A stretch of 63,153 nt of DNA, filler included, from Thraustochytrium aureum (taxonomy: Eukaryota): the NCBI GenBank assembly GCA_012862495.1. It is 3 parts of 3 records of this genome, joined end to end, with 100 filler letters (N's around TTAATTAATTAA, not from the genome) between each part and the next. Parts side by side here need not be neighbours in the genome. Positions count along the whole stretch, not along the records: positions 19,381 to 49,819 come from BLSG01000145.1; 2 more parts are not named here. One strand, 5' to 3'. The notes beneath the pieces are model-generated. The model saw nothing but the letters and a program-made list of their open reading frames with translations. It did not search any database and was not told the origin of the DNA. Shown in pieces: positions 11,555-57,300 of this stretch. How positions within the stretch are numbered: position 1 is the stretch's first letter; each line of letters begins with the position of its first letter. The position numbers were made by a program, and so were the translations under genes.

Positions 11555-14500
11555 ATGGGGGGAGCTGCGTCGACCAGGTCGAAACGCGCCGACTCGTCGA
11601 GCAGCGGCAAGTACAAGGCGAGCGGCGCGCAGCTCGACGAGTCTGGCAAGCAGCGCTCGTCCAAGCGGCAGACGCTCAGCGAAGACGCGGAGAGCTCCTC
11701 AGATCACTACACGCTGCGCGAAGATGCGGTCGAACAGCGCGCTGTAGAGCGCGAGGTGGACCGAAGCATTCGCAAAACGATGAAGAGGCTGTCTATTTCC
11801 AGCAAGGTCGTGTCTCGCGACTTTATGNNNNNNNNNNNNNNNNNNNNNNNNNNNNNNNNNNNNNNNNNNNNNNNNNNNNNNNNNNNNNNNNNNNNNNNNN
11901 NNNNNNNNNNNNNNNNNNNNNNNNNNNNNNNNNNNNNNNNNNNNNNNNNNNNNNNNNNNNNNNNNNNNNNNNNNATTTCCAGCAAGGTCGTGTCTCGCGA
12001 CTTTATGCGGACCGCGCAGGATGCAGAGACGTTCAGGCAGTTCGTGGAGCACAGCGCCAACAACGAGGACGCAGCGTTCGCGAACGAGCTACTCGCCGGG
12101 GTTCACGGCGAGTCGGGCAAGGTGTTTCTGCGCGACACGCTGATCGAGCTCAAGCGCGTCTTGCAAATCAATACTCTGGCGCGCGAGCTCTCGCTGCGAC
12201 ACGACTCTCGGTCGCAGTTCGCGCTAATGATCCGTACGGTGTGCGATATCGTGGGGGCGGATCGCGCCGTGCTGTACATGGTCGACAACGCACAAGAGTT
12301 GCTGCGCGTTCAGGTGGTACGGCAGGCGGGCCTGCACTCTACCGACGACAAGTTCTCCATGGCGATCCCGATGGATCAAGACGTCTCCGGATGGGTGGCC
12401 AAGAACGGTGTTTCCGTCAACATCCCCGACGCGTACAGCGACGCCAGGTTCTGCCCACTTTTGGACGAGACAACAGACTACCAAACGCGGCAGCTTCTCA
12501 CCGTCCCCGTCGGCTTTGCTGCACGCGAGTCCGCGGCGCGGCGCGGAAGCGTCGCCCCGGAGGACAGCCTCCGGCTTGTCTCGATGGTCGAGGAGATGCA
12601 AAAGGGCCAAAAACGCCACGGGCCAGCTCAGCAATGGTCACGCCGGAGCCGAGGGGGGTGGTTCAATATACGCGTCCAGCGGGTCTGCAAGCCCACAGCA
12701 CCCCGCAGGCCACCAGCACAGCCCACACGCACCATCGACCATTCGGCGGACGAGCTCGGTGGCCTCACTAGGCGGGCGGCAGTCCAGCACAGCGGTTGGA
12801 GATCGCCTGGAGGTGGAGGCCGTCATTCAGGTCATGAACAAGATCGACGGCACCCCTTTTTCTGATGAAGACGTGGCGCTCCTGGAGTCGGTGGCGACGA
12901 TCATTGCCGGTTTCGTCTCGCATGCCAAGCTCCGCGAGAAGGAGCGCCGCGAACGCTTGCGCAAGGAGGCCGTGCTCGACGTGGCTGTCTCGCTCGGCTC
13001 GCGCTTGGACGTGCACTCGCTGATTCACACGATTGTGAACAAGCTCCAAGTGACGTTCCGCACAGACCGCTGCTCGCTATTCTTCGTCAACCGCGACGAG
13101 CAGGTCCTCTGGACAGTGGCGAGCAACTTTGCTAACGAGTGGAGCAGCATTAGCAAGGACGACATTATTACCCTTCCGATGGACAAGGGCGTCGCAGGGT
13201 TTGTGGCGCGCACCGGCGAGCTGGTCAACATCAGGGACGCGTACCAGGACGAGCGGTTCTGCAAAGACGTGGACCTCGCCACGAACTTTCGCACCCGGTC
13301 AATTCTTTGCGGGGCCGTAAAGAACTCTCAGGGCGATGTTGTGGCGGTTGTGCAGCTCATCAACAAGCGCAGCGACATGCTGGTCGGGATGCAAAGCATG
13401 CGCAAGGGGCAGTCGGTCAGCAGTCTATCGTCCTCAATGCGTGCGGCGCCCTATCGGGCAGACTCTGGCCGGCCCTCTTTCATGACCCGCAACAGCCGGT
13501 CTTCCATGAGCAAGGACTCGTTCCGCGACTCGTTCAGGGACAGTATCGCGTACGGGGGCGGCGGCAACCTGGACGCTTTGTTTGACCAGGAAGACGAGCA
13601 GCTTTTGAGCGGAATGTTCTCAATGCTGGGCGTGGCCATCTCCAACATGGAGCTATTTTCGCAAGCCTTTGTCGTGCAGAACCGGCTCAAGTGCGTCTTG
13701 GAGAACGTGTCTGAGCTCGTGCTCACTGTCGACAGGAACGGCAAGCTGATGGGCAGCAACCGTGGAAGCCGCGCGATAAACGTTCTGTTTGGCTGCGAAG
13801 AGGACATCGCGGCGGAGCGCATGCGGAACGAGACAGTCGCCGATTGGCTCCCAGATGAGCAGATTGCGAGGGACCTGCAATCTGTGCTCGAAGAGTCGCG
13901 CAAGTGCTCGTCGCAGGAGACAGAGATGGGCGAGATAGGCGTGGCGCGCTCGGAGCACCTGGTCAACAGCACGGGCCACGTGGTCAACTACACGATCAAG
14001 CCCCTTATTGGCGTGGGGACGAGCTTTTCCAACCTCATCCGGCTGCAGAGCCAAGTGGCGCGGGTTTCCAGCAATACGCGGCCCACACTCCCCAAGTCCG
14101 AGTTTGGATCCGTGAACGAGTTTCCCTTCGCCGCCGACACGGCGGTGGAGCTGCCCGCCAGTGCCGAGCCGGCCGAGCTCGCGTGGGGAGGCGGGCGGAA
14201 CGAGCCTCATTTGCTCAACAACCCGAAGGGTTCGCAAAAATCTGACAGCCAGAGGAGGCCCAAGGTGTATTGTCGAGAAGAGTCCCTCCTGGAGCTCAAT
14301 TCGAGCGACTCTGTGAGCGTTTGCAACGGCAACGAGACCCGCGCCACAGAAAAAGAGTTTCTTGGTGCAGTGCTGTGCATTGACGACAAGACTCCGGAGC
14401 AAAAGCTGAGGCAGACACTGAACAAATACTTGGCCCCAGACCTCGTCAACCACCTACTGACGCAGGACGGCAAGTTGCAGCTCGGCGGCGTCAAGCAAAA

Positions 14501-15826
14501 GGTGAGCATTCTGTTCTCGGACATTCGAGGCTTCACCACGTTTAGCGAGGAGGTGGGGCCTTCCGAGGTGTTTCAGACCCTGAACGAGTACTTTTCCTGC
14601 ATGGTTGAGGTGATCACTCAGCACGGCGGGATCGTGGACAAATTTATTGGCGACGCGCTCATGGCCGTGTTTGGCGTCCCGAAGGCCACGCCGCACGACG
14701 CCACGAACGCTTGCAAGGCTGCAATCGCCATGGAGCGCGAGCTGGGCGCCTTCAACGAGGGGCGAATGGCCGCCGGCAAGCCCGTCATTAAGATTGGCGT
14801 CGGCGTCAGCACGGGCGAGGTCTACAGCGGCAACATTGGCTCCGAAAACCGATTCGAGTACACAGTCATCGGGGACGCCGTCAACGTGGCCTCTCGGCTA
14901 GAGTCGAGCACGAAGGAGTACGGGCTCACCAACCTAATCAGCGACTCGACGTTTCAGGATATGCTCGACAGCGGTGCCGAGGTAGTCGTCTCAACGACAT
15001 GGCAAACTGCGAGAGCGAGCTGGACCGAGAGGCGGCAAAGCCGCGAATGTTCCTGCGCGAGGTGGACGTTGTGCGGGTGGCCGGCAAGGACGACGTGACG
15101 CGGCTATTTGAGGTTTTGGGCTTTGCAACGACCCTCTCTCAAGTTGCATCCCCTGAAAAGATTGCTGCACTTCGAGAGTACGGCGCGGGGCTCCGCGCGT
15201 ATCGCACCAAAAACATTAAGGGGGCGTTCACCCACTTTGAGCGTGCCGCAGACATGGGCGACACCCCATCGATCCTGTTTGAGGAGCGATGCGACCACTT
15301 GCTCGAGAACGGCGGGTTTGAGCACCCAGACTGGGACGGTGTCTGGGACATGCAAAAGGTGAGCGTTTGGACATACAAGGCGCTCGAGCGCCCGCCGCTC
15401 ATGCGCCGTGCCTCGACGCGATGCAATTTGTTGTCCTTTGACAAGGACCTCGCTGAGGCGGATTCAGAAATCGCCAAGTCGGCAAGTTTTGGCGGGACCC
15501 GTACTCAGCTCTTGAGCTCTTCGTATCGCGAGAAAAGTACCAAGCGTGTGACCGAGCTTGACTCATTCAAAGAGACCGTCACTGGATACGACTCGGAGGG
15601 CGAGGGCAAGACGGACGCGTTGTCGGCAGACCGCGCTCCAAAGCAGCGGCGTCGCGATCGAAAGCAGTCGATAATCATCAAGCCCTCTGCTCTAAAAAGC
15701 GGGGAGATTGACACGCAGACGCTGCAGCGTCCAAGGCGCTCGAGTGAAAAAGGCCAAAACTCGAATCTCGTTGAGCATCTTGATGCTGCGGAGATGGCCA
15801 ACTTTGAGACCAACATAGTTACCTGA
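11555..15826 (+). CDS. GAF-GAF-PAS class III adenylyl cyclase with TPR-like C-terminal region; spurious gap 11828-11974; frameshifts near 12601 and 14990
   Basis: Two GAF domains (ADRAVLYM...IPDAYSDARF...NKIDGTPFSDED and TDRCSLFF...IRDAYQDERF...NK...FDQEDE), PAS-like LENVSELVLTVDRNGKL, and catalytic ILFSDIRGFT, DKFIGDALM, EYTVIGDAVNVASRLE; ends the conserved part with WDGVW. Confidence 0.9.
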
Positions 15827-17960: not shown

Positions 17961-18415
17961 TTAGGCCACGAGGGTGGAGGCCGTGCTAGACTCGTACTTC
18001 CAGGTAGGGGGCAGGGCCTTGACGCGCTTGTAGTAGCGGGCGAGGCGGTGGATGCGCGACTCGACAAGAATCAGGCGGTACTTGGAGTCGCGGTCGCGGC
18101 GGTTGCGCTCGAGGTGCTTGCGCATGCTGACCGCCTTCTTGATCAGAAAGTACAGGTCCTCGGGGAGCTCGGGCGCCATGCCGTTCTTCTTGAGGAGACG
18201 GAACATCTTGTGGCCGACAACGGCCTTGACCTGGGCGATGCCATGCGAGTCGCGAAGATCACGCCGATCTGCGACGGCGTGAGGCCCTTTTTGGCGAGCT
18301 TGCAGATCTGCTCCTCAATCTCAGCCGGGTTGACGTTCAGCCACGACGGCGGCGTGCGCTTGTAGGGCAGCGCCGAGTCGGAGATACCCTTACCATTCCC
18401 GTACACGCGGCCCAT
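17961..18415 (-). CDS. RPS13: 40S ribosomal protein S13 (uS15); 1-nt deletion near 18257
   Basis: [66 protein letters not shown] and [13 protein letters not shown]. Confidence 0.97.
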
Positions 18416-19280
18416 CTTTCCTGCTCGCTCGACCGCCACATCCCGTCAGCTCCAACCCAATCCGCGCATCCCCGGAGCCACGCCCACGAGCGCCACGGCG
18501 CAAGGCCAACNNNNNNNNNNNNNNNNNNNNNNNNNNNNNNNNNNNNNNNNNNNNNNNNNNNNNNNNNNNNNNNNNNNNNNNNNNNNNNNNNNNNNNNNNN
18601 NNNNNNNNNNNNNNNNNNNNNNNNNNNNNNNNNNNNNNNNNNNNNNNNNNNNNNNNNNNNGAGAAACGCTCTGCCTCGACGTTTCCTCTGCAGCATACCT
18701 TTGCTCTGTGGTCGGCCGCCGCCAGCCACTCACCGATGCGGGGAATGCGTTCCGCAATAGTAAAGACGCAAGGTGGGGCTGCTGGGCGGAGGTGACGTGC
18801 GAGGCGTGGCTGCGTTCCGCGATGGCCAAGGCGCAAGGGGAGAGCTGCTGGGCGGGGGAGTCTGCGAGCTCGGGGAAGGGCGTTCTGCAGGAGATGCGCG
18901 CCAAGGTGCAGCTGGTGGGCTGGGGTGTGGCTAGGGCAAAGGGGGGCTCACTTGCGTTCTTCAAGAGACGCGCGCCAAGGTTGAGCTGGTGGGTTGGGGC
19001 TGTTCCCGATGTCGTTCGAGAGATTTGCGTTCTGCAGGATACACGAGGCAAGGTACAGCTGCTGGGCTGGCCTATTCTATGGTGTGCACTGGCGCGAGAA
19101 ACCCTAGCCCTACATGGTTTGTGTCCGCCCAGACAGTGATGTGCCTGTGACGGGCAACCCACGTCGGCGTCTGCCTTGCTCTGCCCATGTCACCGCGAAC
19201 GTCGCGCAAGGCGGCGTTTTTGCGCATGTGCATGACCGCGAGGCGGCTTACGAAGACAAGGGCTCGGCAGGGCAGGGGCG

Positions 19281-19380
19281 NNNNNNNNNNNNNNNNNNNN
19301 NNNNNNNNNNNNNNNNNNNNNNNNTTAATTAATTAANNNNNNNNNNNNNNNNNNNNNNNNNNNNNNNNNNNNNNNNNNNN
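19281..19380. other. artificial scaffold linker N44-TTAATTAATTAA-N44
   Basis: Six-frame stop 12-mer at 19325-19336 centred in exactly 100 nt; identical structure at 49820-49919. Confidence 0.97.
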
Positions 19381-19387
19381 GGGCCTT

Positions 19388-20895
19388 GTGAACGCCGTTT
19401 CGGCCAGCCTAGGCCTGCTCGGCGGCTACTTGGCGCCACTCGCCCCGGCCGACCACGTCGCGTCTGCCGCGCGCGCCCCGCTCGCGCTCTCGATCGACGG
19501 CCTTTCGCCCATTTCCCAGCGCGGCTCGCCGGTCCACGCAGGGGCCTCGAGCCAACACCGGTTCGTGCCGCGCCTGCAGGTCCAGAGCAACGGTGCTTCC
19601 AAGCACTCTGCCTCCCTGTGCGGCCCCAACGGCGCGCAGATCTCCAGCGTGGGGGACAAGGCGGCGCTTCCGAAGCTCTTCCCGGAGGCCTACAACGCCA
19701 AAGAGGCCCTGCGCCCGAGCGAGCACGGCGTGCACCTCGTGCGCCTCACCAAGAACCAGCGCCTCACCCCCCTGGACTACGAGCGCAACGTGTTCCACCT
19801 CGAGTTTGACATCTCGGGCACCTCGCTCAAGTATCAGATCGGCGACGCGCTCGGCGTGTTCGGCCACAACGACGAAGCCGACGTCGACGCGTTCATCGCC
19901 GCTTACGGGCTCAAGGCGGACGCGCTCGTCTCGATCCCCTCGCGCAAAAAGTGGACAAGGGCCTCGCCGAGCTCGTCAGCGTGCGCAACCTGCTCATCAA
20001 GCACCTCGACATCCTCGGCAAGCCGTCGAAAAAGTTTTACTGCGCGCTCGCCGGCCACGCCTCGTCGCGCTACGAGTACCTCAAGCTCATGCACACCGGC
20101 ACGGACGACAACGAAGCCTTCAAGCTCGGCGTCAACGAGGGCGTCACCTACGCCGACCTCCTGCTGCACTACAAGACGGCGCGCCCCACCATCGAGCAGA
20201 TCGTCGAGATGGTGCCCTTCATCCAGGCCCGCCACTACTCTATCGCCTCGTCCATGAAGCTCAACCCCCGCTCGGTGCACCTCCTCGTCGTGGCCGTGGA
20301 CTGGGTCACCCCGCTCGGCCGAACCAAGTACGGCCAGTGCACGCGCTACCTGGCCAACCTGGATCCGTCCAAGGGCGGCGACATCTGGGTCTCTGTCGAC
20401 GTCATGCCCAGCGTGCTCCGTCTCCCGGAGGACCCCAAGCGCCCCATCGTCATGTCGGGACTCGGCACGGGCATGGCCCCCTTCCGCGCCTTCGTGCAAG
20501 AGCGCAAGTACCAGAAGGAGCTCGGCATGGAGGTTGGCCCCGTCGTGCTCTTCTTCGGCTCGCGCCACCGCCACCAAGAGTGGCTCTACGGCGACGAATG
20601 GGAGCAGTACCACGAGGAGGGCCTCGTCACGCACCTCGGGCTCGCCTTCTCTCGCGATCAGGACGAGAAGATTTACATCCAAGACCGGATCGAGCAGTCC
20701 ACTGAGCTCATGGGACAGCTCATGGGCCCGCAGAAGGGAACGTTTTACCTCTGCGGTCCCACATGGCCGGTGCCTGCCGTCAACGCCGCGCTCTGCCGCG
20801 CGCTCAACCCGGAGGCGGCCAAGCGGGGCGAGGTCGACATGGACATCATCGAGAACCTCAAGGACGAGGGCCGCCTCCTCTACGAGGTGTACTAG
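19388..20895 (+). CDS. NADPH-dependent sulfite reductase flavoprotein (Met10-like), FAD/NADPH-binding C-terminal part; 5' truncated by scaffold start; frameshift near 19947
   Basis: NQRLTPLDYERNVFHLEFDI, RHYSIASS, GQCTRYL, GLGTGMAPFRAF, FYLCGPTWPVP and terminal YEVY. A PNO-type fusion cannot be excluded without the 5' end. Confidence 0.8.
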
Positions 20896-21810
20896 ACCAG
20901 CGCAGAGCAGAAGAAGAACAGTACGCGACGAATCGCATCCTTGCCAGTTTCTACCTATCTTTTACAAATTTCGGCAAAGCCGCGGGGGTCGCTTGGCCGC
21001 CCGCCGCCCCGACTGCGGTCGTTCTGCTCCTGACGGCACCATTACCAGTTGCCCCTCCGGTATGAAGAGGCTTGCCGCGAGTTGGTCACCAACGCCAGTC
21101 TGAGGCCAGGAAGGATTGCCCGTGGGTGGGTGGGTGGACCCCCGCGACCCACGCCTTGCGCTGTTGTCGCTTATGTTGTGGGCGGTCAGTGCCGGCGCAG
21201 GCTTGCGCGGCCGCTCGGCCAGGTCCGCCGACTGCCTTGACAACGACGGCCCAGTNNNNNNNNNNNNNNNNNNNNNNNNNNNNNNNNNNNNNNNNNNNNN
21301 NNNNNNNNNNNNNNNNNNNNNNNNNNNNNNNNNNNNNNNNNNNNNNNNNNNNNNNNNNNNNNNNNNNNNNNNNNNNNNNNNNNNNNNNNNNNNNNNNNNN
21401 NNNNNNNNNNNNNNNNNNNNNNNNNNNNNNNNNNNNNNNNNNNNNNNNNNNNNNNNNNNNNNNNNNNNNNNNNNNNNNNNNNNNNNNNNNNNNNNNNNNN
21501 NNNNNNNNNNNNNNNNNNNNNNNNNNNNNNNNNNNNNNNNNNNNNNNNNNNNNNNNNNNNNNNNNNNNNNNNNNNNNNNNNNNNNNNNNNNNNNNNNNNN
21601 NNNNNNNNNNNNNNNNNNNNNNNNNNNNNNNNNNNNNNNNNNNNNNNNNNNNNNNNNNNNNNNNNNNNNNNNNNNNCGCTGACCGATGGCCCTTCTTCCT
21701 CGCTTGACCCAGCTGCCCCCCGAAAGCAGGAATGGCGCAAACGCTCGAGGCGCTCGTCGACGGACTGCGGAATCCACATCAGCCTCTCTTCGATCCCTTA
21801 CTTGATCTTC

Positions 21811-24415
21811 TCAGCCCTGGTCTGTCACAGACGACAGGCCGCTCAGGCGCCGACTGGACCTCCGACTCGACGCCTGACCGAAGCTAAATCGGCGAGACAG
21901 GCTCGTCCGTGACTGACTTGCGCGCTTGCTGTGACGCGAATGGCAGCGGGACAAGGCCCGCACCATCTCGTCCGAGCCAACCTTGACGTTGTTCAGGTCG
22001 CAGCCTGTCGCAACCCAGTGCCTCAGCAGGTCTGAAAGGCTCCACACAGCCCCGTTGAGCCGAACCGGGTCTTCTAAAGGACTGCCAACTAGGTCGGTCC
22101 ATGAGAGGCTGAGCCGCCGGCTGTTGCGAGGCAGCTCCTCCCAGCGCAGCGAGGCGGCCACAAGGCCGCGCTCGTGCCGCTGCCACTCGGACCACGTTGC
22201 GAGCCATGCTTCAAACTGAGCTTCGCTCACGCCGAGCGCGTCTCGGCGCGCTGCGTCGAGCTCGCTCTCCGGGATCTCGATGTAGCGCGAAAACAGCATC
22301 TCGACGGCCGAGACGGGCAAGTCCAGCTCTTCGCGCAGCGCGATCTCGAACTTGAGGTACACGCAGACGTCGTCCACGGCGCCCAATTCGGCGATCTTGC
22401 GCTGCACGTGCTGGTGCACAATCCCAAGTCGCATCACGCCGCGGCCGACATCGCGCAGGGCAACAGCGTCGTCGCGCGCCTTGGCCACTCGCGCAAGCAC
22501 AGCCAGTTGGTTCAGCGCCCAAACCGGCTTGTCGCTGCACGTGTCCACGCTGCTCACCATCCGCGTAATGACCTCCCCGCGAGCAAACTCGTCCGAGCAG
22601 AGCGTCTCGAGCGCCTCCACGACTCGACGCGCAAGCCCGGGGCGCGACTCTGCTGCCGTGAACTCTTTGGCGCCTTTGAGCTTGGACAAGAAGAGCAGCA
22701 CGCCCCGCTCGTTGTCAGCGCTGACATGAGCGCCAACATCGAGGTGCTCGCCGGACGGCAGACCTGCTTCGTGGGCCCAAAATTCGACCGCCTGCGGCAC
22801 GGATGTAAAGTCGGGCACCTCGTGCGGCAAGGGCTCGCCCCAGCCCGTCGCTGCGCGTTGAACGATCTGGCCGACCTGGAAACGCACGTTGATATTGCGC
22901 ACTCCTCGGAGGCGCTCCATTTCGAGAGGATCGAGCCCAGTGCCAATCAGGTAGACCGTGTGCGGACGGCCGATCGCTGTCGCGCCCCACTCGAGGACGG
23001 CGTCTGGGAGGCGGCGGAGCGAGCTGCACCCAGAAAAGTCGGCGTCCTCGCCCGCTTGCGTGTCCACGGGCAGGCTCTGGAGCAAGGGGCAATTAACGAC
23101 GACCAGGCCTTCGCCCGCGCGCAGCCGCCCGCGGAACCTCCGCAACACCGTGCAGAGCTCGACGGTGACGTCGCCTCCCGACGAGACCCCGGGCGCATCC
23201 GTCAGCCGAAGGCACTCCACCAGGCCAAAGCTCCCTGGCACGTGGATCTCCTCCTCGGTCTCTACAAGCTTGTGCAACTGGCTAAGCCTCGAGAGGACGA
23301 CGTCCTTGCCGACGTCGAGCGTCGGCACAGTCTCCAGCGCGCTGCAGGCCATGACGCAGAGGCTTCCGCTCACGGTCAAGCCCTCCGGCATGTTCACGAG
23401 GCTGCTGCACTCGATCACGTCGAGGTCGCCGCGCACGGGCGGAAACCTCGCGGGGAGCTGCGCGAGCGCGCGCAGCTTGCGAAGGTGAATGTTGCCGCCG
23501 ACCGCGAGGCCGTCTGGGAGTGTGCGGAAAGCCGCAAGGTCAGTGAGGACCAGGTCGCCCTCCACTTGGAGGCCGGCGTCTAGCTCTTGGAGATTTCGGC
23601 AGCTCCGGACCACCAAGTCCCCGCGCACCGTTCCCAGCGAAACGACTGACAGGCCGTCCATGCCTAATAGAGTAACGTTGCCGTGCCGAGGATCCAGCGA
23701 AGACAGCGCACGCAGTCCGCACCTCTGGAAAGACACGTGGCGACCGACCTGGACAGTGCCCCTTACGCCGTCCTCCACAACGTGCTGCAGCTTGGCGCAG
23801 GCAAATGCAGTCAGATGGCGCCCGACCGAGGCCCCGCCGCCTGCGGCGACCTGGCGGAGCTCGGGGCACAGGCTAATGTGCAGGTCATCCCGCACCGACA
23901 GGTGGCGCCCCAGGCTCCTCAGCTTGGAGCAGTTGCGGATCCACAGCGATCCCTCAATGGCGAGGTCGTCCGGGAGCGACGTCACGTGTGCCAGCCCGGC
24001 GAGGACGAGGCCGCAGCGGACGACGCAGCCCTCGGCCGCCTCGCTGCTTTCCTCCGCCCCGCCATCTGCGCTGAATTGCTCTGCGTCGGGGCGCGACCCG
24101 CGCGGGCGCGGGCGGCGGCCCGGAGCTCCCTGGCGCCTATCGTTTTCGCCTGCGATAACAAGGCTCTCGTCCGTCTCCACAGCGTAGGTGAGCAAGGCCG
24201 CCAGAATGCGGCTCCTCTCGGCGGGGCTGACGAACAGGTTTTGCAGCGTGTACCGGTCAATGCGATGCGCCGCAGCAGCAACAGTGTCCATGCCCCGTTC
24301 CACCAAGGTCATAAACACGGTTGCTCCTCCGTTGCCGCTCTCCGCGAGCAATTCGCTCAGCTCGCAGAACGACGACTCGCGCCCCACGGCGCTCACGCGC
24401 GTGCCCCACGCGCTC
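21811..24415 (-). CDS. LRR plus NEL (IpaH/SspH-type) E3 ubiquitin ligase with U-box-like tail; 5' end lies in or beyond gap 24416-24970
   Basis: Many ~22-aa repeats of the form LPxxLxVxGxLxlxxCxxL, then FLSKL...RRVVEALETL...VDTCSDK...LRDVGRGVMRL...VDDVCVYLKFEIALREELDLP...EMLF...WLATWSEWQ, which is colinear with the NEL domain. Confidence 0.85.
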
Positions 24416-25810
24416 NNNNNNNNNNNNNNNNNNNNNNNNNNNNNNNNNNNNNNNNNNNNNNNNNNNNNNNNNNNNNNNNNNNNNNNNNNNNNNNNNNNNN
24501 NNNNNNNNNNNNNNNNNNNNNNNNNNNNNNNNNNNNNNNNNNNNNNNNNNNNNNNNNNNNNNNNNNNNNNNNNNNNNNNNNNNNNNNNNNNNNNNNNNNN
24601 NNNNNNNNNNNNNNNNNNNNNNNNNNNNNNNNNNNNNNNNNNNNNNNNNNNNNNNNNNNNNNNNNNNNNNNNNNNNNNNNNNNNNNNNNNNNNNNNNNNN
24701 NNNNNNNNNNNNNNNNNNNNNNNNNNNNNNNNNNNNNNNNNNNNNNNNNNNNNNNNNNNNNNNNNNNNNNNNNNNNNNNNNNNNNNNNNNNNNNNNNNNN
24801 NNNNNNNNNNNNNNNNNNNNNNNNNNNNNNNNNNNNNNNNNNNNNNNNNNNNNNNNNNNNNNNNNNNNNNNNNNNNNNNNNNNNNNNNNNNNNNNNNNNN
24901 NNNNNNNNNNNNNNNNNNNNNNNNNNNNNNNNNNNNNNNNNNNNNNNNNNNNNNNNNNNNNNNNNNNNNNCACGCGGCCCGAGTCCCGGCTGGGTTCGTG
25001 ACGTATTTGTGGATGTGGACTTGGCGGCGAGCAAGTTGACGCGCAAGCAGTGGCTCAAGCTCGCGGTCGAGACAACCAAGGACCGGGCCCTCCAGGACGC
25101 CATCGTTTCCCGCGCGGCCCGGACTGGCCCGGCTCGTCGTGGTTGGGGGCGCCGGCAGGATGTAAGAATGCAAGAACACCACCTTGTCGGCACCGGGCGC
25201 CACGATGAAGCGCCTGGCTGGCCGTGAAAACGGCCCGAGAGCTGGCACATCCGCATCGTCAACGAGGCGCACACCAGCAAGCGCTCATCCTGCTGCCACT
25301 CGCACGGCATGCAGGGCGAGCACTGCCCACTTTTGAACGAGCCGGCCGCACTCGCACATGGGCCATCATCAAGCATCTTGAAGTTTCGTTAGGTATCCGT
25401 TGAGGCGGCGGGCAAACGCCCGACGCCAACGACGCCGTCGAGGTCTCTGCCCAGCGCGCTCTCCGTACTCTGCTGCGCTTTCGTCGACTTGCTGCGTGGC
25501 CTTGCAGAGTGTGGGTGTTCTGTCCGGTTTGGCTTCTTTCCAGGTGGTTGATGGCTGGTTGTCCTCTCTCGAGTGTTGCGGGCCTCGCAAGCGACGGCGG
25601 CCTGCGAGGCTTCACTTCATTTGCAGTTGTTAGATGCAATTCGTGTCAAGCCAGGTTCGCTTGGCGAGGAGGTCGTGCATGTGGCAAGAGTGATCGAGTG
25701 CCAGGCGCTCGGCGACTCGCGAAAGGCGCTTCGTTGCCAGGGTGCAGGCAGCGGCGTTCGAGGCCTGCGCGGTCGTCGCGTTTGGCGTTGAGCCTAGCAG
25801 CCGAGGCGCG

Positions 25811-26923
25811 ATGAGCGATGCCGAGTCGAGCGAGATGTTCCGGATGACAAGGCACGACTTGGACGGGCTCGGGGGGGCGCTGGCAGAGCTCAACGCGCAC
25901 GTGAGCAGCCTTGAACCAGGCGAGCCCCACTTTGCGCTTGTGATCGGCAGCGGGTCCGCGCAAGCGAACGGGATCTACGCGCGCGCCGCGAGGCTGCACG
26001 AGGGGGCGCCAGTGTATATTTCGCCCGCAGGGCACGCAATCAGCTTGGAGGTCATCAATGGCGTCCCTGGGTGGATACTCGGCAAGTGGCCTCGGGTGCT
26101 CTACGGGTGCTGCACCGACCCAGACCGCGTGCCGTTCCGCGAGTCGTTCACGGCCTACGCCGGACTTGAACCAGCGTGCAGGCTGTTCGCACTAAACCAG
26201 AATATGATGCGGATTTGCGGTGCGCTGCGCGTCCAGGGCTCGCGCGAGCGCGAAGCTCGCGAGGTCTGGGCTTGGGTTCAGGGTCAATTCTTTATGATTA
26301 GCGCAGCGCGTGGGTCTCCTGTGCTCGACCAGTTCGACATGACAGAATTTGCCGTCCGACCGCGCCAGCAGAACGCCGGCGGCAACGCGGCGCTCGAGCT
26401 GGTGAGGCCACCCAACGTAGACGCTGACCAGCGCCCCAGCAGCGTAGTTTCCCCTCAAGCTCTCAGCAAGGGAGTACCAGACGGTGTCGTTGTGGATGCA
26501 ACCATCACGTGCCCCAGCAGCGAGGATATGCTCTTGTGGCTTGCAACCCTCGAGGTCATGGTGGCCTGCTTTCGCGTCGACGTGCGGACGCGCGACGGTG
26601 GGGCAGAAGTGAAGCGCGCTGCACAGAGCGGCACGCCCGCGAAACCCAAGCAGGTCGAGTACGAGAACAAAACGAGCGAGGAGGAGCTGCTTGCGCACTT
26701 TCGCGGCGTCAAGGCGCACATGGAAGCCGAGGAGGACCGGAGTCGGCGGTCGCGGGAGCGGCGCCTCAAGCGCATGGACACCGCGGAGCGCGAGGCACTT
26801 TTGGCAGAGGAGGCTGCTACGAAAGAGCACGAGGAGCGCAAAGATCGCATGCTCAAGTCGCAGCTGCGACAGTACGCGAGCGCAAACCCGCTCAAGTCGG
26901 GCGGCCGCAAACCGCGCGTATAG
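25811..26923 (+). CDS. hypothetical protein with PH-like domain and charged coiled-coil C-terminus
   Basis: ATG-started ORF; ICGALRVQG...VWAWVQG...TCPSSEDMLLWLATLE resembles the PH first strands and terminal Trp helix. Confidence 0.55.
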   Translation: MSDAESSEMFRMTRHDLDGLGGALAELNAHVSSLEPGEPHFALVIGSGSAQANGIYARAARLHEGAPVYISPAGHAISLEVINGVPGWILGKWPRVLYGCCTDPDRVPFRESFTAYAGLEPACRLFALNQNMMRICGALRVQGSREREAREVWAWVQGQFFMISAARGSPVLDQFDMTEFAVRPRQQNAGGNAALELVRPPNVDADQRPSSVVSPQALSKGVPDGVVVDATITCPSSEDMLLWLATLEVMVACFRVDVRTRDGGAEVKRAAQSGTPAKPKQVEYENKTSEEELLAHFRGVKAHMEAEEDRSRRSRERRLKRMDTAEREALLAEEAATKEHEERKDRMLKSQLRQYASANPLKSGGRKPRV

Positions 26924-27440: not shown

Positions 27441-28787
27441 ATGGACGCGCCTGCCACCGACCGACACGGCCTGGCGCTGTGGGCGCGGACGCCGACAGGA
27501 CTGGAGCGCGAGCTGTGCCGCGAGGTACTGGGGCTGCTGGGGGAGCGGGCCGATGCGGGGGCAGCCGAAGTGAAGGACGGCAACGTGGTTGTGCCACTTC
27601 GGGAAAGCTGCAAGGTTGGAGCAGCTGAAGTTCTCCGGCTGCGTTGCGCGGAAAAGGTACTGGTGCGCCTGCTCAAGGCCACAGATGATGCTTTGAGGTA
27701 AGCAACGACGACGATGGCTTGGCGGGCTCGTTGGCCTCGAAGGGCCAAGGCTTGCACTTTGGTTTTGTAGAGGGCTCTATATAGTTGGGTTGACAGTCAA
27801 AGGCGCGCTCTTTATCACGCCGTTTACCACCGACGACGCGCAGCAGCACCGACAAGGAATCTGCTCTTCTTGCGGTCGAGCGCCTCGTCGGCTCCATCGC
27901 GGCGCCGGCCTGGGAGAGCGCCCTCGAAATGCGGCTCGACTTTGCATGCCAGGTTTCAAGCGGCGGGAAAGCCTCTGCAGGTCAGCGAGCAGGCGCCGCA
28001 GCAACTCTGCCGCGCCCCCGCCTCGACGTGGCCGCGGGCCCGCTTTTCCAGGTCAAGGGCAAGCGAACGGGCACTCACCAATTCGACAGCACAGAGATGC
28101 GCAAGGCGGCCTACAAGGCCATCAAGGCGACAAACCCGCGCTGGGAGGGGGTGTACAAGGGCGCCGAAGTCGACGTTGATCTCGCCGTGAGCGACTCGAC
28201 GATACAGGTCGGCATGCTTATCACCAGCGTTGAGCTGTGGCAGCACACGATGCTCCAGTACCCTCGCGAACTCGTTTCGACGCCGCTCAAGCCCATTCAC
28301 GCCTTCGGGCTTGCGAAGCTGACGCAACCGCAGACTGGCGACCTGCTGATCGACCCTGTCGCCGGCAGCGGGACAATCCTCGAGGTGGCCGCTCGAGAGC
28401 TTCCAGAGCGGCTGTTTTGTCTGGGCGGCGACGTCGACCCGGACAATGTCGCCAAGGTGGCCCACAACGCCGCTGCCTGCGGGCGAGGGGGCTATATCGA
28501 CGCGGTCGTTTGGGACGCGACTCGCCTTCCGCTGCGCGACGGCGTCGTGGACCGCATCGCTGCGGACATGCCCTTTGGGAAGCGGTGTGGCAACAAGGCT
28601 TCGAACCGCAAGCTATACTCGGCCGCTGTGAGGGAGTTTCTGCGCGTCATGCGGCGCGATGGGCAGCGCAGCGCAACCTCGCGTTGCGATCTTTTGTCTG
28701 CCGACATGGGAGCGATCGTGTCCGTTTTGAAGAACAAGCAGCTGCGCTACTCGCTCAAACTACACCGCCAGGCGCGCATGCACATCG
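27441..28787 (+). CDS. THUMP-domain tRNA m2G methyltransferase (THUMPD3/Trm14-like); intron 27698-27843; 3' end in gap
   Basis: Exon 1 has RTPTGLE and LRLRCAE. A GTAAGC donor at 27698 and CAG acceptor at 27843 restore the frame. Exon 2 has DPVAGSGTILEVA, GGDVD, WDATRLPLRDG and DMPFGKR. Confidence 0.85.
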
Positions 28788-47830: not shown

Positions 47831-49645
47831 TCAGAGCAGGTTCAGAAACTGTTTGAGGTCGCTGCTCGATTCATAGTTTGGCAGAGGCGGCGGGCCGCCG
47901 CTGCCGCCCCAGTTCAAGTTGCTGCTACCCATCTTGTTGAGCCGAGTGGCCGGGCCTGGCGCGGCGGCGCCCCCTCCAGTTGTGTCCGGCAGTCCGACGG
48001 GAAACAGCCCAAAGTCGCCACCGCCCAAACTGCCCCACGAGTTGTACTGCCGCAGCCCCTTGGTGGGCGGCCCTTCGATCGGGGGCGAGGCGAGAAAGTC
48101 GTCCCCAGGTGGTGGCATGGTGCTCTCCCCCAAGAGCTTGTCAAGCATGGCGAGATTGGAGGTCTCGGCGCGTTGCAAGCCCTTTTTCGGCTGTTGGTAG
48201 GGCGCCGCGCCGCCCTGCGGGTAGGACATGACCTCGTTGCCATCGGTGCGGAGAAAGTCGTGGAGAACGGTCTGGCTATTGGTGCGGCGCAAGCCCACGC
48301 CCATGTCGGTGCCGTACGTGCCTAGCGCGCTCGTGCTGCCGTTCCCGTCGAGGTTGTCCACGACACCAGCCATCCAAGACGAGCCGTACTTGCGATACAT
48401 GCCCTTCTTCGGCGCTTCGGCGCCGTGCTGCTGCTGCTGCGGATACTGCTGCTGGAACTGCTGCTGGGACGTGGACGGGTTGGCCGGAGCAGGTGCCGGC
48501 GGCGGCTGCGCCTGCGGGTAGTATGGTGGGGTCGCACCCCAGCCTTGTGAGGGGGGCGGGATGTCGGGTCCAAAGTCACGGTCGCCCCCCCCGCGCGTAA
48601 AGTCGACGGTGGGCGTGATAAAAGGCGAGGTGACCGGCGCCCGCGTTGGCCGCTGCCCTTGCTTTTGCGCGATGAGGTTCTCCTTCAAGACTTGCGCGCC
48701 GATGGGCTGGATCGGAGGCGGCGGCGGGTTGGGAGCCTGCAGAATGCCCTTGGCGAGCTGTTCTTCAATCTGCTGGACCTTGCGCACGATGTCGGGCTTG
48801 TGCTGCGTGAGAACTGCGAAGCGCTTCTTGAGCTGGCCGCGGCTGCGGCCGGGGAGCTGTTTGACGATCTTGCTCCAGTCGCGGCCGAAGACGACCGTTG
48901 CGTTGATGAGCGACGAGTCCTCCTCGCTGGTCCAGCCGCGGTTGCGGGCCTCTTGCCGCTGTAGGCTGTGGTAGCGGGTCTTGACGAGGTTTTCTGTGCG
49001 GCCTTCCATGTTCTTGGCGATTAGAGACCAGCGCCCACCGCACTGCGCGGCGAGCTCGAGGAGCCGGCGGTCCTCCTCGGGCGTCCAGGGGCCGCGGTTG
49101 ATTGCTGGGTCCAGGTTGAGGTACCAGCGCTCGCGGCATTGCTTTGCGTTGCGGCCTTCAATCTGCTGCGCTATGGCGGCCCAGTTGATGTTGTTGATAG
49201 ACCCCTTGGCCTGGTAGCTCTGGATCATGCTGAGCAGCGTGGAGTCTTCCTCCTTTGACCAGTGGCCCTTGATGAGGCCGGGCTTTAGCGCCTTTTTCCA
49301 CCGCTGCAAGCACTGTAGATGGTTTCTCCCGGGAATGTCCTTGGCGATCTCGCGCCAGTTCTTCTCCCCGTGCCTTTGCACGGCTTCGCGCAGGTTTTCG
49401 TCCTCTTCTGCGGACCACATTTTTGGGACGACGCCGGGCTTGCGCGCCCCGAGAAAGTTGACGCGTTGAAACTTGTTGTCGTACAGCGCCCCTGGTGTAT
49501 TGTCCACATACGCGCCGGCCGAGATCTGCCGTTTCGTCATCCGCCGTTGCGCGCCACTGCTTGGGGCCTCGCTCTCCGCTCCCACATCATTCAAACTCAG
49601 ACTATCCATCAGAATCCGTCCAGACTCCGCCATCGCTTCCGCCAT
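47831..49645 (-). CDS. Myb transcription factor with four tandem Myb repeats and a Pro/Gln-rich tail
   Basis: WSAEEDE..QCLQRW, WSKEED..QCRERW, WTPEED..GRTENLVKTRY and WTSEED..GRSRGQLKKRF. Confidence 0.92.
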   Translation of the reverse strand: MAEAMAESGRILMDSLSLNDVGAESEAPSSGAQRRMTKRQISAGAYVDNTPGALYDNKFQRVNFLGARKPGVVPKMWSAEEDENLREAVQRHGEKNWREIAKDIPGRNHLQCLQRWKKALKPGLIKGHWSKEEDSTLLSMIQSYQAKGSINNINWAAIAQQIEGRNAKQCRERWYLNLDPAINRGPWTPEEDRRLLELAAQCGGRWSLIAKNMEGRTENLVKTRYHSLQRQEARNRGWTSEEDSSLINATVVFGRDWSKIVKQLPGRSRGQLKKRFAVLTQHKPDIVRKVQQIEEQLAKGILQAPNPPPPPIQPIGAQVLKENLIAQKQGQRPTRAPVTSPFITPTVDFTRGGGDRDFGPDIPPPSQGWGATPPYYPQAQPPPAPAPANPSTSQQQFQQQYPQQQQHGAEAPKKGMYRKYGSSWMAGVVDNLDGNGSTSALGTYGTDMGVGLRRTNSQTVLHDFLRTDGNEVMSYPQGGAAPYQQPKKGLQRAETSNLAMLDKLLGESTMPPPGDDFLASPPIEGPPTKGLRQYNSWGSLGGGDFGLFPVGLPDTTGGGAAAPGPATRLNKMGSSNLNWGGSGGPPPLPNYESSSDLKQFLNLL

Positions 49646-49819
49646 TCTCCCGTCCGTCCTGCCGACCCGCCAGCCGCCGGGCCTCGCCACCACAGCCGCC
49701 TTTCCCGCCAACCCGCCGTCACTCGACCTCTCAAACAGTCTATCAATCAGTCAATCAACAAAACAAGACCAAAACAAGACAAACCACGCGCCCGGCGCTC
49801 CAGCCCTGCCCGCCCGCCT

Positions 49820-49919
49820 NNNNNNNNNNNNNNNNNNNNNNNNNNNNNNNNNNNNNNNNNNNNTTAATTAATTAANNNNNNNNNNNNNNNNNNNNNNNNN
49901 NNNNNNNNNNNNNNNNNNN
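49820..49919. other. artificial scaffold linker N44-TTAATTAATTAA-N44
   Basis: Six-frame stop 12-mer at 49864-49875. Confidence 0.97.
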
Positions 49920-54338: not shown

Positions 54339-57300
54339 TCAACCTGGGAGCGCCGCAGGTCTTGTCAACGTCAGCTCAAGGTTCGACTGCTCCACCTGGG
54401 CTTGCACTGCGCGACGGTGGCGCTGAGCCGCATCAATGGCGTGCCCTCCAGCAGAGGTTGATGCATCGAGGTTGTCTTCCAGACGAGCCCAGCCCACATG
54501 TTCAACGTCTGCCCTAATCCCAGGCTGGAAGCTGTCAAACGTGACCTCTTCGCGCTCGCGAAAGATGCGTCCAACCATCTCGAAGGAAAGCATGGGCCTG
54601 CCAAACAAAGACTCGTGCTCCGCTGTGATTCGTTCCCGCGCCTCGCTCGTTGGGAGATCTTTCAATGGGCCAAACTTGGCCTCGGCCGACAGCACAGCGC
54701 GAAAGCACCGCCGATGCGCGCGACCACGTATGGCGGCCTGCAAGCACATCGCAGCAAGGCTCTCCTTGACGATTTGAACCTTGCGAAGCCGATCAACGAG
54801 CTCGGCGGGGGAGAGGGAGCTTGGGTCCACGTTCACCAGGATGATTACTTCGAGGCACTCAAAGAAGCCGATACTCGGCACGTTTGCCACAACCTTGAAG
54901 CTGGTGCAGTCATGATTGACGGGGCAGCTGCACGGACGGCTGGTGTGGATGACCTGAAAGATTTCGAGGCGGGCTTGGTTGTACTGCTCGCGTTTTTCGC
55001 GCTCTCTCCATGGTGCACAACCAGAGCTCGTAAAGGGCACGCCCAGGGCGTAAAAGAACGACCGAAATGCGCTGACGCTAATCCGCCCTGTGGCGTGCGG
55101 GTCGTACAGTCGCCACTTCTCCTCGAAGCGCTCAAAATCGTCCTCCGAGAAGGCCCACCGGAAGGAGACCAGCTTGCTCTTTGACTCGAAGGCGTCGATT
55201 ACCGTCGCCGCGTAGAGGTTGACAAATACCCCAAACGTCAGAAAGTAGAACGAGAAAAAGTAAGCGTGCGCGAGCTTGTAGGATCCGCAGTCGACACCTG
55301 CCTCGCACGCTGGCGCCTCGACACTGCAGTCGCGCATTATGGGTATCCAGTTGTCGCCCGCCGCAATCTGAAAAAGCGTCAGCAGCGAATCGGAAAAGGT
55401 AGAAAAGTTCGCAGCGCTGCCTAGCACCGCCCCGTGCCGCACGCGCGCGAAAAGCTGCATTCCGAGGACAGCGTACACAAACAAGAGCAGGAAAAAGACC
55501 ACGGTCACATTGACCATTGAGGGCAAGCACTCCACGAGTACAGCAACCATTCGTCCCGCTTTGGAGCTCGTTCGGGAGTGCCCGTCGACAATGCGAAGCA
55601 GCCTCGAGATGTCGATCGCGCGAATGACCACGACGATGTCAAGTGACCGACCCGACCAAAGCAAACCAAGGAGCAGCGCGAGCGAGACCGCCTCTACAGC
55701 AGGCGAGATTCGGAGGTATCGCACGTGCGCCAGTCTCTGCGGGTCATATCCGGTGCGAAAGTAAGTCCGCTTTGGCCCAAACGCGGCGAGTCGAGCTCCG
55801 TGAACAAGTGCGTGCTCGGTCGCGAAGACGCCGTGGACGACTAGGCGAAACTCTGGCGGGATTGCCTCCGTGCGCAACAGAGTCACGCACAGTACATAGC
55901 CTATCGTGCACCCAGCTGCCACGGCCTCAAACCATTCGGCCTGGCACAAATTGAACAACCGTCGCCGAACCGGATTGGCTGGAGGATTCACGTGAGGCTG
56001 CATGTTGGACATAATCCGGCGCATCTCCATCCACTGGAGCTGACCGGGGGTGAGCAGCAGCGTTCCAGAGAACGACCTATAGGTGCCGACGATTACGCCG
56101 ATGAAGAGCTTCATCATAAAAAAGCTTCCGAGAAAGATAAACCCCACGAAGAACACGGGGGCCGCCCGCGTGACGTTTAGTCCTGCCCAGAGCTTCTCGG
56201 GCCATGCTTTCATCGAGATCGTCTCAACAAGGGTGCCCAGTGCGTCCCCCGCCGAATCGAAGGTGAAGGGCAGATTATCCCACGTCCGCGCGCGCAGCAT
56301 GCGACTTGAAGAGTCGATGTAGTGGCCGCGACAGTGCTCCTGGTTCGTGACGGCGATGTCGGAGCACCGAGAAAACGCTCCCATAAACATCTCCATTCCA
56401 ATCACTGCGAACCCGTACATGAACGCGACTATCACAACGCACGTGTACGAGACCGGCTTTATGGCGAGAATAAGAGAATCCACGATTACCTTGAGCCCTT
56501 GGTTGCGGTTAACCATTCGAAGCGGCCGCAGCACGCGCCCAAGTCGCAAAATGCGGCCAACGCCCGAGCTGTCACCGAAGAGACCGACGTACGAAACCAC
56601 TAGGACGACGATGTCAAGCGCGTTCCAAGAATCGCTCAAGTAGGCCCGGGGCCCCAGCCCGACGACCTTGATGGCAAACTCAGCTGTAAAGAATGCTGCG
56701 AAAACACTCGGCAACCTCGAGCAGAAGTTGGATGTTCGGCGTTTGTTTTCGTACTTGGGCGACTCCAGCGTGAGCAGCACAGAGCTGACGAGAATGCCGG
56801 CAATCACAACGCCTTCAAACCCGGGGTGAACGGCCAGCGCTGCAAGGGCTCCGCGAGCGCGCTTTGCCATTGACAGCTTACTGTGAAGATCTTGCTGCAC
56901 AGGATGAGGTACTGGAGAAACCTGCGCCAGCTTGGGTCTATCGGTCGGCTCCAGTTGCTCAACGCCCCCCCTCGCTTTGCCCTCCGCCATGCCGCGATTG
57001 TTGCGACGCAGAGCCGCGAGAATGCGCTCGTCGCGCTCGGCGCGCAGTTGGCGCAGCTCATCCTCGGACTTGGCAAAGCCAGCCATGACAACCACGCCCA
57101 GAAAGTTGAGAACGATGACTGTGCCAAACAGGTGGAACGTGAAGAAGAACGGCGCGGCCATCGCCTTGGTCTCACTCTTGAGGACGTTGTAATAGATTGG
57201 CCACATTGCTCCGCCGGTCATGATCTGAAACAGCGTGAGCATCGCGTCCCAGAAGTGTCAAAGTTGGCTAGGGGTGGTGCGTAGAGCTCGGCGAAGGTTG

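Follow-up and report, generated by a model that had tools for sequence, protein, structure and literature searches.

A leucine-rich repeat NEL ligase with a predicted degenerate U-box in the thraustochytrid Thraustochytrium aureum

To our knowledge, NEL ubiquitin ligases have been described as bacteria-only enzymes with no structural relation to the RING and HECT types. The accessible sections of one account make them exclusive to pathogenic or symbiotic bacteria (PMC9320238), and the available parts of a 2026 review and of a paper on Simkania give proteobacterial NELs only, with no U-box fusion (PMC13720258; PMC12591485). The NEL domain consists of a catalytic N-terminal subdomain and a C-terminal thumb that binds the ubiquitin-charged E2 enzyme (E2~Ub), and the step from E2 to the catalytic cysteine has not yet been captured structurally according to the accessible text of the same source (PMC12506513). 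This analysis concerns a ligase gene on the minus strand of a 63,153-nucleotide stretch of DNA from Thraustochytrium aureum (assembly GCA_012862495.1), referred to here as the window, in which positions 19,381 to 49,819 come from BLSG01000145.1. A preliminary description of the window had read the frame at 21811..24414 as a plain IpaH/SspH-type ligase with leucine-rich repeats (LRRs) and a NEL domain. The favored reading here, considered likely though well short of certain, is that this labyrinthulomycete-type gene joins LRRs, a NEL core and a predicted degenerate U-box in a likely cytosolic hybrid E3 that probably derives from a bacterial effector cassette. The ligase is more unusual than it was first taken to be, combining an unexpected kingdom with an unexpected, predicted E2-recruiting module.

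A literature search, outside which lay most subscription journals and all supplements, found no description of a eukaryotic NEL family or of a NEL–U-box architecture. Two candidate precedents were rejected. The “NEL” reported in algal NLRs equates the LRR superfamily SSF52075 with NEL and is not the catalytic domain in the part of that paper available (PMC7145615), and the accessible part of a second paper likewise offers no precedent for a eukaryotic NEL or NEL–U-box protein (PMC7029713).

The ligase frame and its catalytic core

The frame runs for 867 codons from 24414 to 21814 on the minus strand, with its stop codon at 21811–21813, and it is uninterrupted and without introns, as first described. 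It fills a contig at 21677–24415 that is flanked by gaps; the gaps had been reported correctly, and the contig start had been placed one base too early, at 21676. The 5′ end of the frame is open into the gap beginning at 24416, and the start codon is probably upstream, inside that gap. A DNA contig from sequencing run X1 extends 202 bases past 24415, and its 30 visible letters, by our own reading, continue the same frame without a stop. The observation of an LRR and NEL frame in eukaryotic DNA is confirmed.

The NEL catalytic (N-terminal) subdomain occupies 22165..22809 on the minus strand (amino acids 536–750) and is identified by Pfam, by PDB sequence matches and by structure. Pfam NEL (PF14496) matches amino acids 568–747 with 87.9 bits (E 8.5e-25) against a cut-off of 24, and phmmer returned 13 PDB sequences, one of them an LRR protein and the other 12 IpaH/SspH/SlrP chains (E 1e-11 to 3e-9). 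An AlphaFold model of amino acids 519–827 has a mean predicted local distance difference test score (pLDDT) of 91.8 and a predicted template modeling score (pTM) of 0.86, and its top nine Foldseek matches are NEL structures. The core is matched by SspH1, SspH2, IpaH and SlrP, with a Foldseek E-value of 5.8e-6 for SspH2 and a best VIA-align Z of 14.1 for SspH1. Similarly, the top six Foldseek matches to the model of the full-length seen protein (pLDDT 83.6; pTM 0.61, at which domain packing is unreliable) are NEL effectors. Both the HMMER and the AlphaFold/Foldseek checks proposed at the outset thus uphold the NEL assignment.

The catalytic cysteine is Cys626, encoded at 22537..22539 on the minus strand within DTCSDK, the codon that had been proposed for it. 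It corresponds to C337 of IpaH9.8 in the phmmer alignment and is Cys in 88 of 88 rows of the eukaryote clade, a label that rests on the named members of the clade. Asp628 of the CxD motif (22531..22533, minus strand; D339 of IpaH9.8) is Asp in 88 of 88 rows. Asp681 (22372..22374, minus strand) aligns with D397 of IpaH9.8, the Asp 60 residues beyond the catalytic Cys of that enzyme, and is Asp in 84 of the 88 rows, Glu in three and Lys in one. The catalytic triad C626/D628/D681 is therefore intact and near-invariant in the eukaryote clade, and D339 and D397 are stated to matter for the activity of IpaH9.8 in the available text on that enzyme (PMC9320238).

A predicted U-box in the thumb position and the repeats before the core

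The plain IpaH/SspH-type reading fails beyond the core, where the thumb is absent. In the position of the IpaH E2~Ub-binding thumb, at 21934..22101 on the minus strand (amino acids 772–827), profiles and the model point to a degenerate U-box. The tail of the window protein does not resemble that of IpaH (E 18), and profile matches to IpaH end where the core ends. In nearly all listed relatives the match does not stop with Pfam NEL but goes on through some 55 conserved amino acids, a stretch that in more distant relatives resembles a U-box. A 30-row profile of NEL plus tail found 24 PDB sequences at E<=10, of which 12 are NELs and 12 are U-box proteins matched only at the tail (E 0.0012–1.5). 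The tails of 16 bacterial frames matched LubX (E 4.6e-7) and Prp19 (E 6.6e-5), with 16 of 17 matches being to U-box or RING-type proteins, and an hhalign comparison of the eukaryote-clade tail alignment with the bacterial one gave a probability of 95% (E 3.3e-8). In VIA-align, the tail (residues 254–309 of the model) superimposes on the Prp19 U-box over 53 of 56 residues with a root-mean-square deviation (rmsd) of 2.1 Å and Z 4.8, and it gives Z 4.7 with Ube4B and Z 6.7 with AvrPtoB. Foldseek assigns the tail probabilities of 0.95–0.99 for several U-boxes, but with E-values of 0.5–1.

The tail also separates two groups of NEL proteins. A tail hidden Markov model (HMM) matches none of the 68 classical NEL frames, duplicates included, but 16 of 17 frames in the bacterial NEL–U-box loci L006–L021 and 137 of the 146 proteins of the family; the HMM was derived from the family, so the first of these figures is the informative one. 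The tails after the core are similar in length, mostly 76–94 amino acids in the classical frames and 72–92 in those of L006–L021. Taken together, the tail is predicted to have a degenerate U-box fold, and the U-box is predicted to replace the thumb in the window ligase.

Several results weigh against this assignment. A profile built from eukaryote rows only found no U-box in the PDB, and neither did the single tail of the window protein. The Pfam U-box (PF04564) has no match in the window protein and stays below threshold even in bacterial members, three of 16 being matched with a best E of 0.016; the best relatives give 0.016–0.02. The alignment behind the tail model contained bacterial rows with more canonical U-boxes, which biases the model to that fold, and the register of the linchpin position is inferred across a one-residue loop deletion in the eukaryotic tails.

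The eukaryotic U-boxes are both conserved and eroded. The domain is present in 83 of 88 eukaryote-clade rows. Position 775 is L, F or V in 76 of 83 rows and position 800 is W in 76 of 83 (L775 and W800 here), positions that, as established for U-boxes, face the E2. The second-loop proline, kept in 65 of 72 bacterial rows, is L or F in 75 of 83 eukaryote rows (L807 here), and the first-loop Cys/Pro is likewise lost in eukaryote rows. The linchpin arginine is lost, with Asn at position 809 in 71 of 83 eukaryote rows (N809 here), and DPxxR/K occurs in none of 75 eukaryote-clade tails compared with 37 of 72 bacterial-type tails. The loss of these hallmarks (first-loop Cys/Pro, second-loop Pro and Arg) would fit an active NEL in which the U-box of the eukaryotic members is a leftover or serves structure or dimerization, with E2~Ub bound by another surface or by a partner. 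The failure of the eukaryote rows alone to match a U-box in the PDB or Pfam points the same way, as do the best sequence matches, since the Prp19 U-box dimerizes and the second U-box of LubX binds substrate, both non-canonical uses. However, the domain sits in exactly the position of a thumb that is gone, and it is kept in most eukaryote-clade rows with its E2-facing hydrophobic residues conserved. A relic or structural module is accordingly judged unlikely, with a modest chance of being correct, and an E2-docking U-box is preferred.

After the U-box comes an Arg/Ser-rich tail at 21814..21933 on the minus strand (amino acids 828–867), which is predicted to be disordered from its sequence and from pLDDT below 50 at residues 833–867. 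Such a tail had been noted in the preliminary description, in which it was taken to follow the NEL domain; a folded U-box-like domain separates the two. On the other side of the core, the LRR array at 22981..24027 on the minus strand (amino acids 130–478) is a predicted substrate or ligand sensor. It has 15 LRR motif matches with a median spacing of 21 amino acids (20–24, with one double gap), hence about 16 repeats, so the long LRR run was read correctly and its period of about 22 amino acids was not. The modeled repeats form a solenoid with two short strands in each repeat, and VIA-align of the LRR model gave Z 23.4 for Leptospira LIC11098 (rmsd 6.0, 357 residues aligned), 22.7 for the RPP1 LRR and 19.9 for YopM. 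Pfam LRR models have no match in the window ligase, which has a different LRR subtype.

The array ends in a C-terminal cap at 22867..22980 on the minus strand (amino acids 479–516) that is common to bacterial NEL–U-box proteins. An HMM of amino acids 455–516, covering the last LRR and the cap and built from eukaryote-clade rows only, finds, above 20 bits, 49 of the 58 U-box NELs of bacterial type and 41 of the 73 rows of the eukaryote clade but none of the 58 thumb-type NELs, which argues that the entire cassette is homologous. At the N-terminus, the model has a five-helix bundle with a SAM-like layout at 24172..24381 on the minus strand (amino acids 12–81; helices 12–24, 29–39, 45–51, 54–58 and 64–81, pLDDT 56–83 in the full-length model). 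A SAM HMM from family members scored it weakly (E 0.19), the five helices follow a SAM-like order in the model, and the bundle has no homologue in the family set and, like the tail, no usable ESM Atlas match. The identity of this region as a SAM domain, a domain also found in LRSAM1, is not established. A crude test found no hydrophobic N-terminal stretch (15-residue mean <=1.41) in the window protein as far as it is seen, its true N-terminus being missing, nor in any of 21 relatives, and the missing leader in the relatives suggests a cytosolic location.

A labyrinthulomycete family and its bacterial counterparts

The preliminary description had taken the gene for a horizontal acquisition; it does not stand alone but is one member of a large and old labyrinthulomycete family. 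A relative search gave 21 proteins with 37–57% identity to the window ligase. At least nine relatives are named genes of Hondaea fermentalgiana on contigs of 18–939 kb, and several others are MMETSP transcripts. One relative on an 11-kb contig is labeled Durusdinium trenchii and is suspected to come from a co-cultured labyrinthulomycete. In the representative protein search, 655 proteins matched at E<=0.001, with 85 of these reaching E<=1e-30, and the best 150 of the 655 were examined as relatives. The named eukaryotic members are nearly all labyrinthulomycete. The taxon id in the header of P0058 points to a fungus, at odds with a marine transcriptome entry, and was left aside. Among the matches to the neighboring flavoprotein, P0184, labeled Batrachochytrium salamandrivorans, and among the ligase relatives P0025 with other CAK-prefixed entries, labeled Durusdinium trenchii, rank with labyrinthulomycete sequences, which suggests contamination of those assemblies. 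PF14496 already stands in the automated annotation of the Hondaea proteins, and one relative bears a name taken from SspH1, so the domain lies latent in databases. An exact-word scan of metagenomes, an insensitive method, gave two loci only, and two equally insensitive exact-word scans of viral contigs gave no viral relatives.

Other members of the family carry ARM, SPRY+LRR or multiple SAM domains N-terminal to the NEL–U-box module, with clear SAM domains among the relatives only in P0004 and P0047. This shuffling of domains before a common module suggests a modular native E3 family. Fusions to TPR, kinase, PCI, tubulin and LSm domains in the family may be gene-model artefacts.

The ligase behaves as a eukaryotic gene. 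Among its closest relatives, at 50–57% identity, are protist transcriptome entries and named genes of Hondaea, the latter on contigs as long as 939 kb. Its GC content at third codon positions is 0.80, and its leave-one-out codon adaptation index is 0.70, compared with 0.61–0.86 in 13 neighboring frames. Strain differences within the frame comprise 16 synonymous and 6 replacement changes where 26% synonymous would be expected (p = 5e-6; pN/pS ~0.13); of the differences listed, 20 come from X2 and 2 from X1, with one X5 difference left out. The gene is under purifying selection. Most of the frame is tiled by X2 contigs that are 95–100% identical to it, and the gene is covered in two probable RNA runs, X2 and X3, that splice an intron of a neighboring gene. 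One independent 47%-GC metagenome contig (L001) carries a relative that adjoins Spo11/TopVIA-like and ALG6-like genes, identified by eye. Pfam domains in the window (WD40, Myb, EF-hand, four-domain channel and cyclophilin) are eukaryotic. A bacterial contaminant scaffolded among protist contigs would be consistent with the lack of introns, with the artificial linker islands of the scaffold and with the gaps, neither of which is bridged by a contig in runs X1–X6 and X8. The sequencing evidence for a nuclear gene is limited in that the RNA status of X2 and X3 is a guess, no run being recorded as RNA, that both come from one study, and that X1 is perhaps near the source of the assembly; stretches lacking cover in these runs were given no weight. 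However, codon use, strain variants, spliced-RNA-type cover and the eukaryotic surroundings of L001 all fit a nuclear gene, and many host genes nearby likewise have long uninterrupted frames. Bacterial contamination is very unlikely as the source of the ligase contig, to the point of being scarcely credible, and the first judgment that the gene is eukaryotic stands.

Counterparts of the ligase occur in bacteria. A search with a chlamydia-leaning query gave 472 candidates, 388 of them with a NEL core, and the best 80 of the 388 yielded 77 loci. The NEL–U-box loci L006–L021 come from metagenome-assembled genomes (MAGs) of Rhabdochlamydiaceae, Chlamydiales and Chlamydiae, unlabeled MAGs, one Verrucomicrobiae-labeled MAG and one unclassified gammaproteobacterium. 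Among 300 Chlamydiota genomes, at least 50 have a NEL match and at least 6 have a match through the tail. Some Chlamydiota genomes hold many NEL copies (G223: 372 candidates, 6 scored), and chlamydial NEL ligases are absent from the available parts of the two published accounts (PMC13720258; PMC12591485). A near full-length gene of the SctV/FlhA family was found in all four tested genomes with NEL–U-box proteins. In L011/L016, on the 1.8-Mb Verrucomicrobiae-labeled MAG G004 (C15 14119-18508), the NEL–U-box gene lies about 1.4 kb from an SctV/FlhA-family gene; G004 groups with chlamydial sequences and is possibly a mislabeled chlamydia. The preliminary suggestion of a link to Endozoicomonas found no support, as the 77 loci include none from an Endozoicomonas genome, which is an unfair test given the chlamydia-leaning query.

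Trees were built with FastTree on 145 and 226 rows (seven duplicates dropped in the latter) and with IQ-TREE on 54 hand-picked rows of the 226, using the NEL core alone and omitting the unstable long branches P0084 and P0145. IQ-TREE supports the eukaryote clade at 100/100 and the split between U-box and thumb NELs at 90/95. The phylogeny of best matches proposed earlier thus groups the window gene, with full support, with nine or more Hondaea paralogues, and on these sequences the eukaryotic family has a single origin. Transfer from bacteria to protist is the favored direction, given how common NEL is among bacteria and that their U-boxes are the less derived. Two tree results weaken it: the chlamydial sister of the eukaryote clade has a support of only 81/68, and a single clade of bacterial U-box rows is not rejected (approximately unbiased test, AU p = 0.43). 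The earlier claim of a gene horizontally acquired from bacteria and domesticated remains plausible.

The same enzyme could also have arisen by a NEL–U-box fusion in a labyrinthulomycete ancestor or another protist, passing then to intracellular bacteria, or have come from a shared unsampled donor. The U-box is established as a eukaryotic domain, eukaryote and bacterial U-box groups as sisters are not rejected by the tree, and two proteins labeled bacterial-type, P0095 and P0110, could be eukaryotic. Weighed against this, the bacterial U-boxes are more canonical and the eukaryotic ones uniformly derived, bacteria commonly carry NEL cores (388 of 472 candidates; at least 50 of 300 Chlamydiota genomes), and the named eukaryotic members are nearly all from one lineage, the labyrinthulomycetes. 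A protist fusion or shared donor is held to be unlikely, and a bacterial source is preferred. About 40 bacterial-type rows may partly be eukaryotic. P0095 and P0110 are long proteins of LRR, NEL and U-box whose ends are low-complexity Ala/Gly sequence; they are placed among bacterial-type rows and could represent a second eukaryotic acquisition.

Around the ligase, a THUMP/RlmKL-like methyltransferase at 27489-28787 (plus strand) contains the GT..AG intron at 27695–27842 (146 bases) that is skipped in runs X2 and X3. The C-terminal part of a sulfite-reductase flavoprotein (MET10-like) lies at 19382-20895 (plus strand), with best named matches to Aplanochytrium (62–64%), Hondaea (59%) and one Batrachochytrium-labeled entry (64%), compared with about 50% for oomycetes and other fungi; on this ground the host is most likely a labyrinthulomycete, in agreement with the relatives of the ligase itself. 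Its frameshift near 19951 is an assembly error, because X1, X2 and X3 each carry one extra base. A 40S ribosomal protein S13-like gene at 17963-18420 (minus strand), identified by eye, is apparently frameshifted, probably by a sequencing error. The frame of 409 codons at 25694-26920 (plus strand), divergent from the ligase across the gap, has host-like codon use and no Pfam match. Further genes include a GAF–adenylate/guanylate cyclase at 12231-15095 (plus strand), a multi-repeat Myb factor at 47834-49750 (minus strand) and a multi-domain voltage-gated-type ion channel at 54342-59386 (minus strand). Loose contig ends and a joint at 22251-22374 and 23233-23250 in X2/X3 suggest further expressed ligase paralogues in the same organism. 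Islands of 12 A/T-only bases between 44-N runs at 19325-19336 and 49864-49875 resemble artificial scaffolding linkers, and therefore the order of contigs on either side carries no biological information.

Proposed mechanism and comparison with known systems

From the anatomy, conservation and family spread that were observed, we infer the steps of E2 docking, transfer to the cysteine and substrate modification. The U-box would dock a Ubc4/UBE2D-type E2~ubiquitin, taking the role of the missing IpaH thumb. Linchpins of RING and U-box domains stabilize the closed E2~Ub for direct transfer in the accessible text of one source (PMC12326332), and RBR RING1 domains lack a linchpin and pass ubiquitin to a catalytic Cys in that of another (PMC5462532). 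Because linchpins serve the closed E2~Ub and linchpin-less RING1s feed a catalytic Cys, the U-box of the window ligase is likely an E2 dock feeding C626; its loss of the second-loop Pro and Arg linchpin would leave E2~Ub unclamped, favoring transfer to Cys626. Asp628 and Asp681 would then hand ubiquitin to a lysine on the substrate that the LRRs hold, and the LRRs may also keep the core inactive until a ligand arrives. A single acquisition would have been followed by multiplication of the module and its joining to LRR, ARM, SPRY+LRR and multi-SAM sensors, giving a lineage-specific E3 family.

Two observations weaken the linchpin argument. Asn can act as a linchpin, as N98 of RBX1 does according to the part of that source available (PMC12326332), and about half of the bacterial-type rows retain Arg alongside the catalytic Cys, and therefore the cassette does not require linchpin loss. 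These observations also bear on a two-mode ligase, in which the U-box would additionally act as a direct E2-to-lysine E3 and the NEL Cys would serve a second E2 or chain type. The retention of DPxxR/K in about half of the bacterial-type tails (37 of 72) would suit such an enzyme, as would the ability of non-Arg linchpins to function (PMC12326332, in its accessible part). The eukaryote-clade tails, however, lack DPxxR/K throughout while their catalytic Cys is invariant, and two modes are regarded as highly improbable in comparison with a U-box that docks E2 for C626. A bolder version of that reading makes the NEL–U-box proteins an undescribed RING/Cys-hybrid class, in which an effector that evolved for injection in protist-infecting bacteria such as environmental chlamydiae was captured once by a labyrinthulomycete ancestor, lost its linchpin there, turned into a dedicated E2 dock with a catalytic cysteine and grew into a native E3 family with exchangeable LRR, ARM, SPRY and SAM sensors, perhaps directed at intracellular microbes or viruses; its chances are put at about even. 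As for the role, defense against such microbes or viruses is guesswork.

If a free-living eukaryote has a conserved multigene NEL family of its own, one more catalytic class of E3 would have to be counted among those of eukaryotes, and a host lineage would have adopted a weapon aimed at the ubiquitin system. A natural exchange of thumb and U-box would imply that the NEL core is modular. The contacts between U-boxes and E2 enzymes are well mapped, and the exchange could provide a new handle on how E2~Ub is presented to the catalytic Cys. Thraustochytrids can be cultured and transformed, which makes knock-outs and substrate trapping feasible.

The window ligase shares with IpaH, SspH1, SspH2, SlrP and NopM (PF14496) the order of LRRs followed by the NEL helical subdomain, with CxD and a second Asp. 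It differs from IpaH-type NELs in having a predicted U-box for the thumb, another LRR type (21 amino acids) and cap, a eukaryotic host and a separate clade; the type III-secreted bacterial context of NEL effectors is missing, and the gene sits among eukaryotic genes. The LRR–NEL–U-box proteins of Chlamydiota and the gammaproteobacterium (L006–L021) have the same LRR type, cap, core, U-box, order and spacing. They keep C-P-I-T and D-P-x-x-R in the U-box, and their NEL motifs are CxDR and DE-x-E, whereas eukaryote-clade NELs have CxDKP and DD-x-C. Injection is presumed for the bacterial proteins; the protist copies, in contrast, are genes of the host. With Prp19, UBE4A/B, Ufd2, Legionella LubX and AvrPtoB the ligase shares the predicted fold of the tail, but those U-box ligases have no catalytic Cys, whereas the degenerate U-box here is fused to a transthiolating domain. 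The presumed mechanism resembles that of RBR ligases (HHARI, parkin) and other RING–Cys hybrids, in which a linchpin-less RING-type domain recruits E2~Ub and passes ubiquitin to a Cys, according to the accessible part of one account (PMC5462532). The catalytic domain of RBR ligases is non-homologous, no RING1–IBR–RING2 Pfam match was found in the window ligase, and its U-box is zinc-free and C-terminal to the core, so the relation is one of analogy and not of membership. The window ligase is a canonical member of neither the NEL nor the RBR class.

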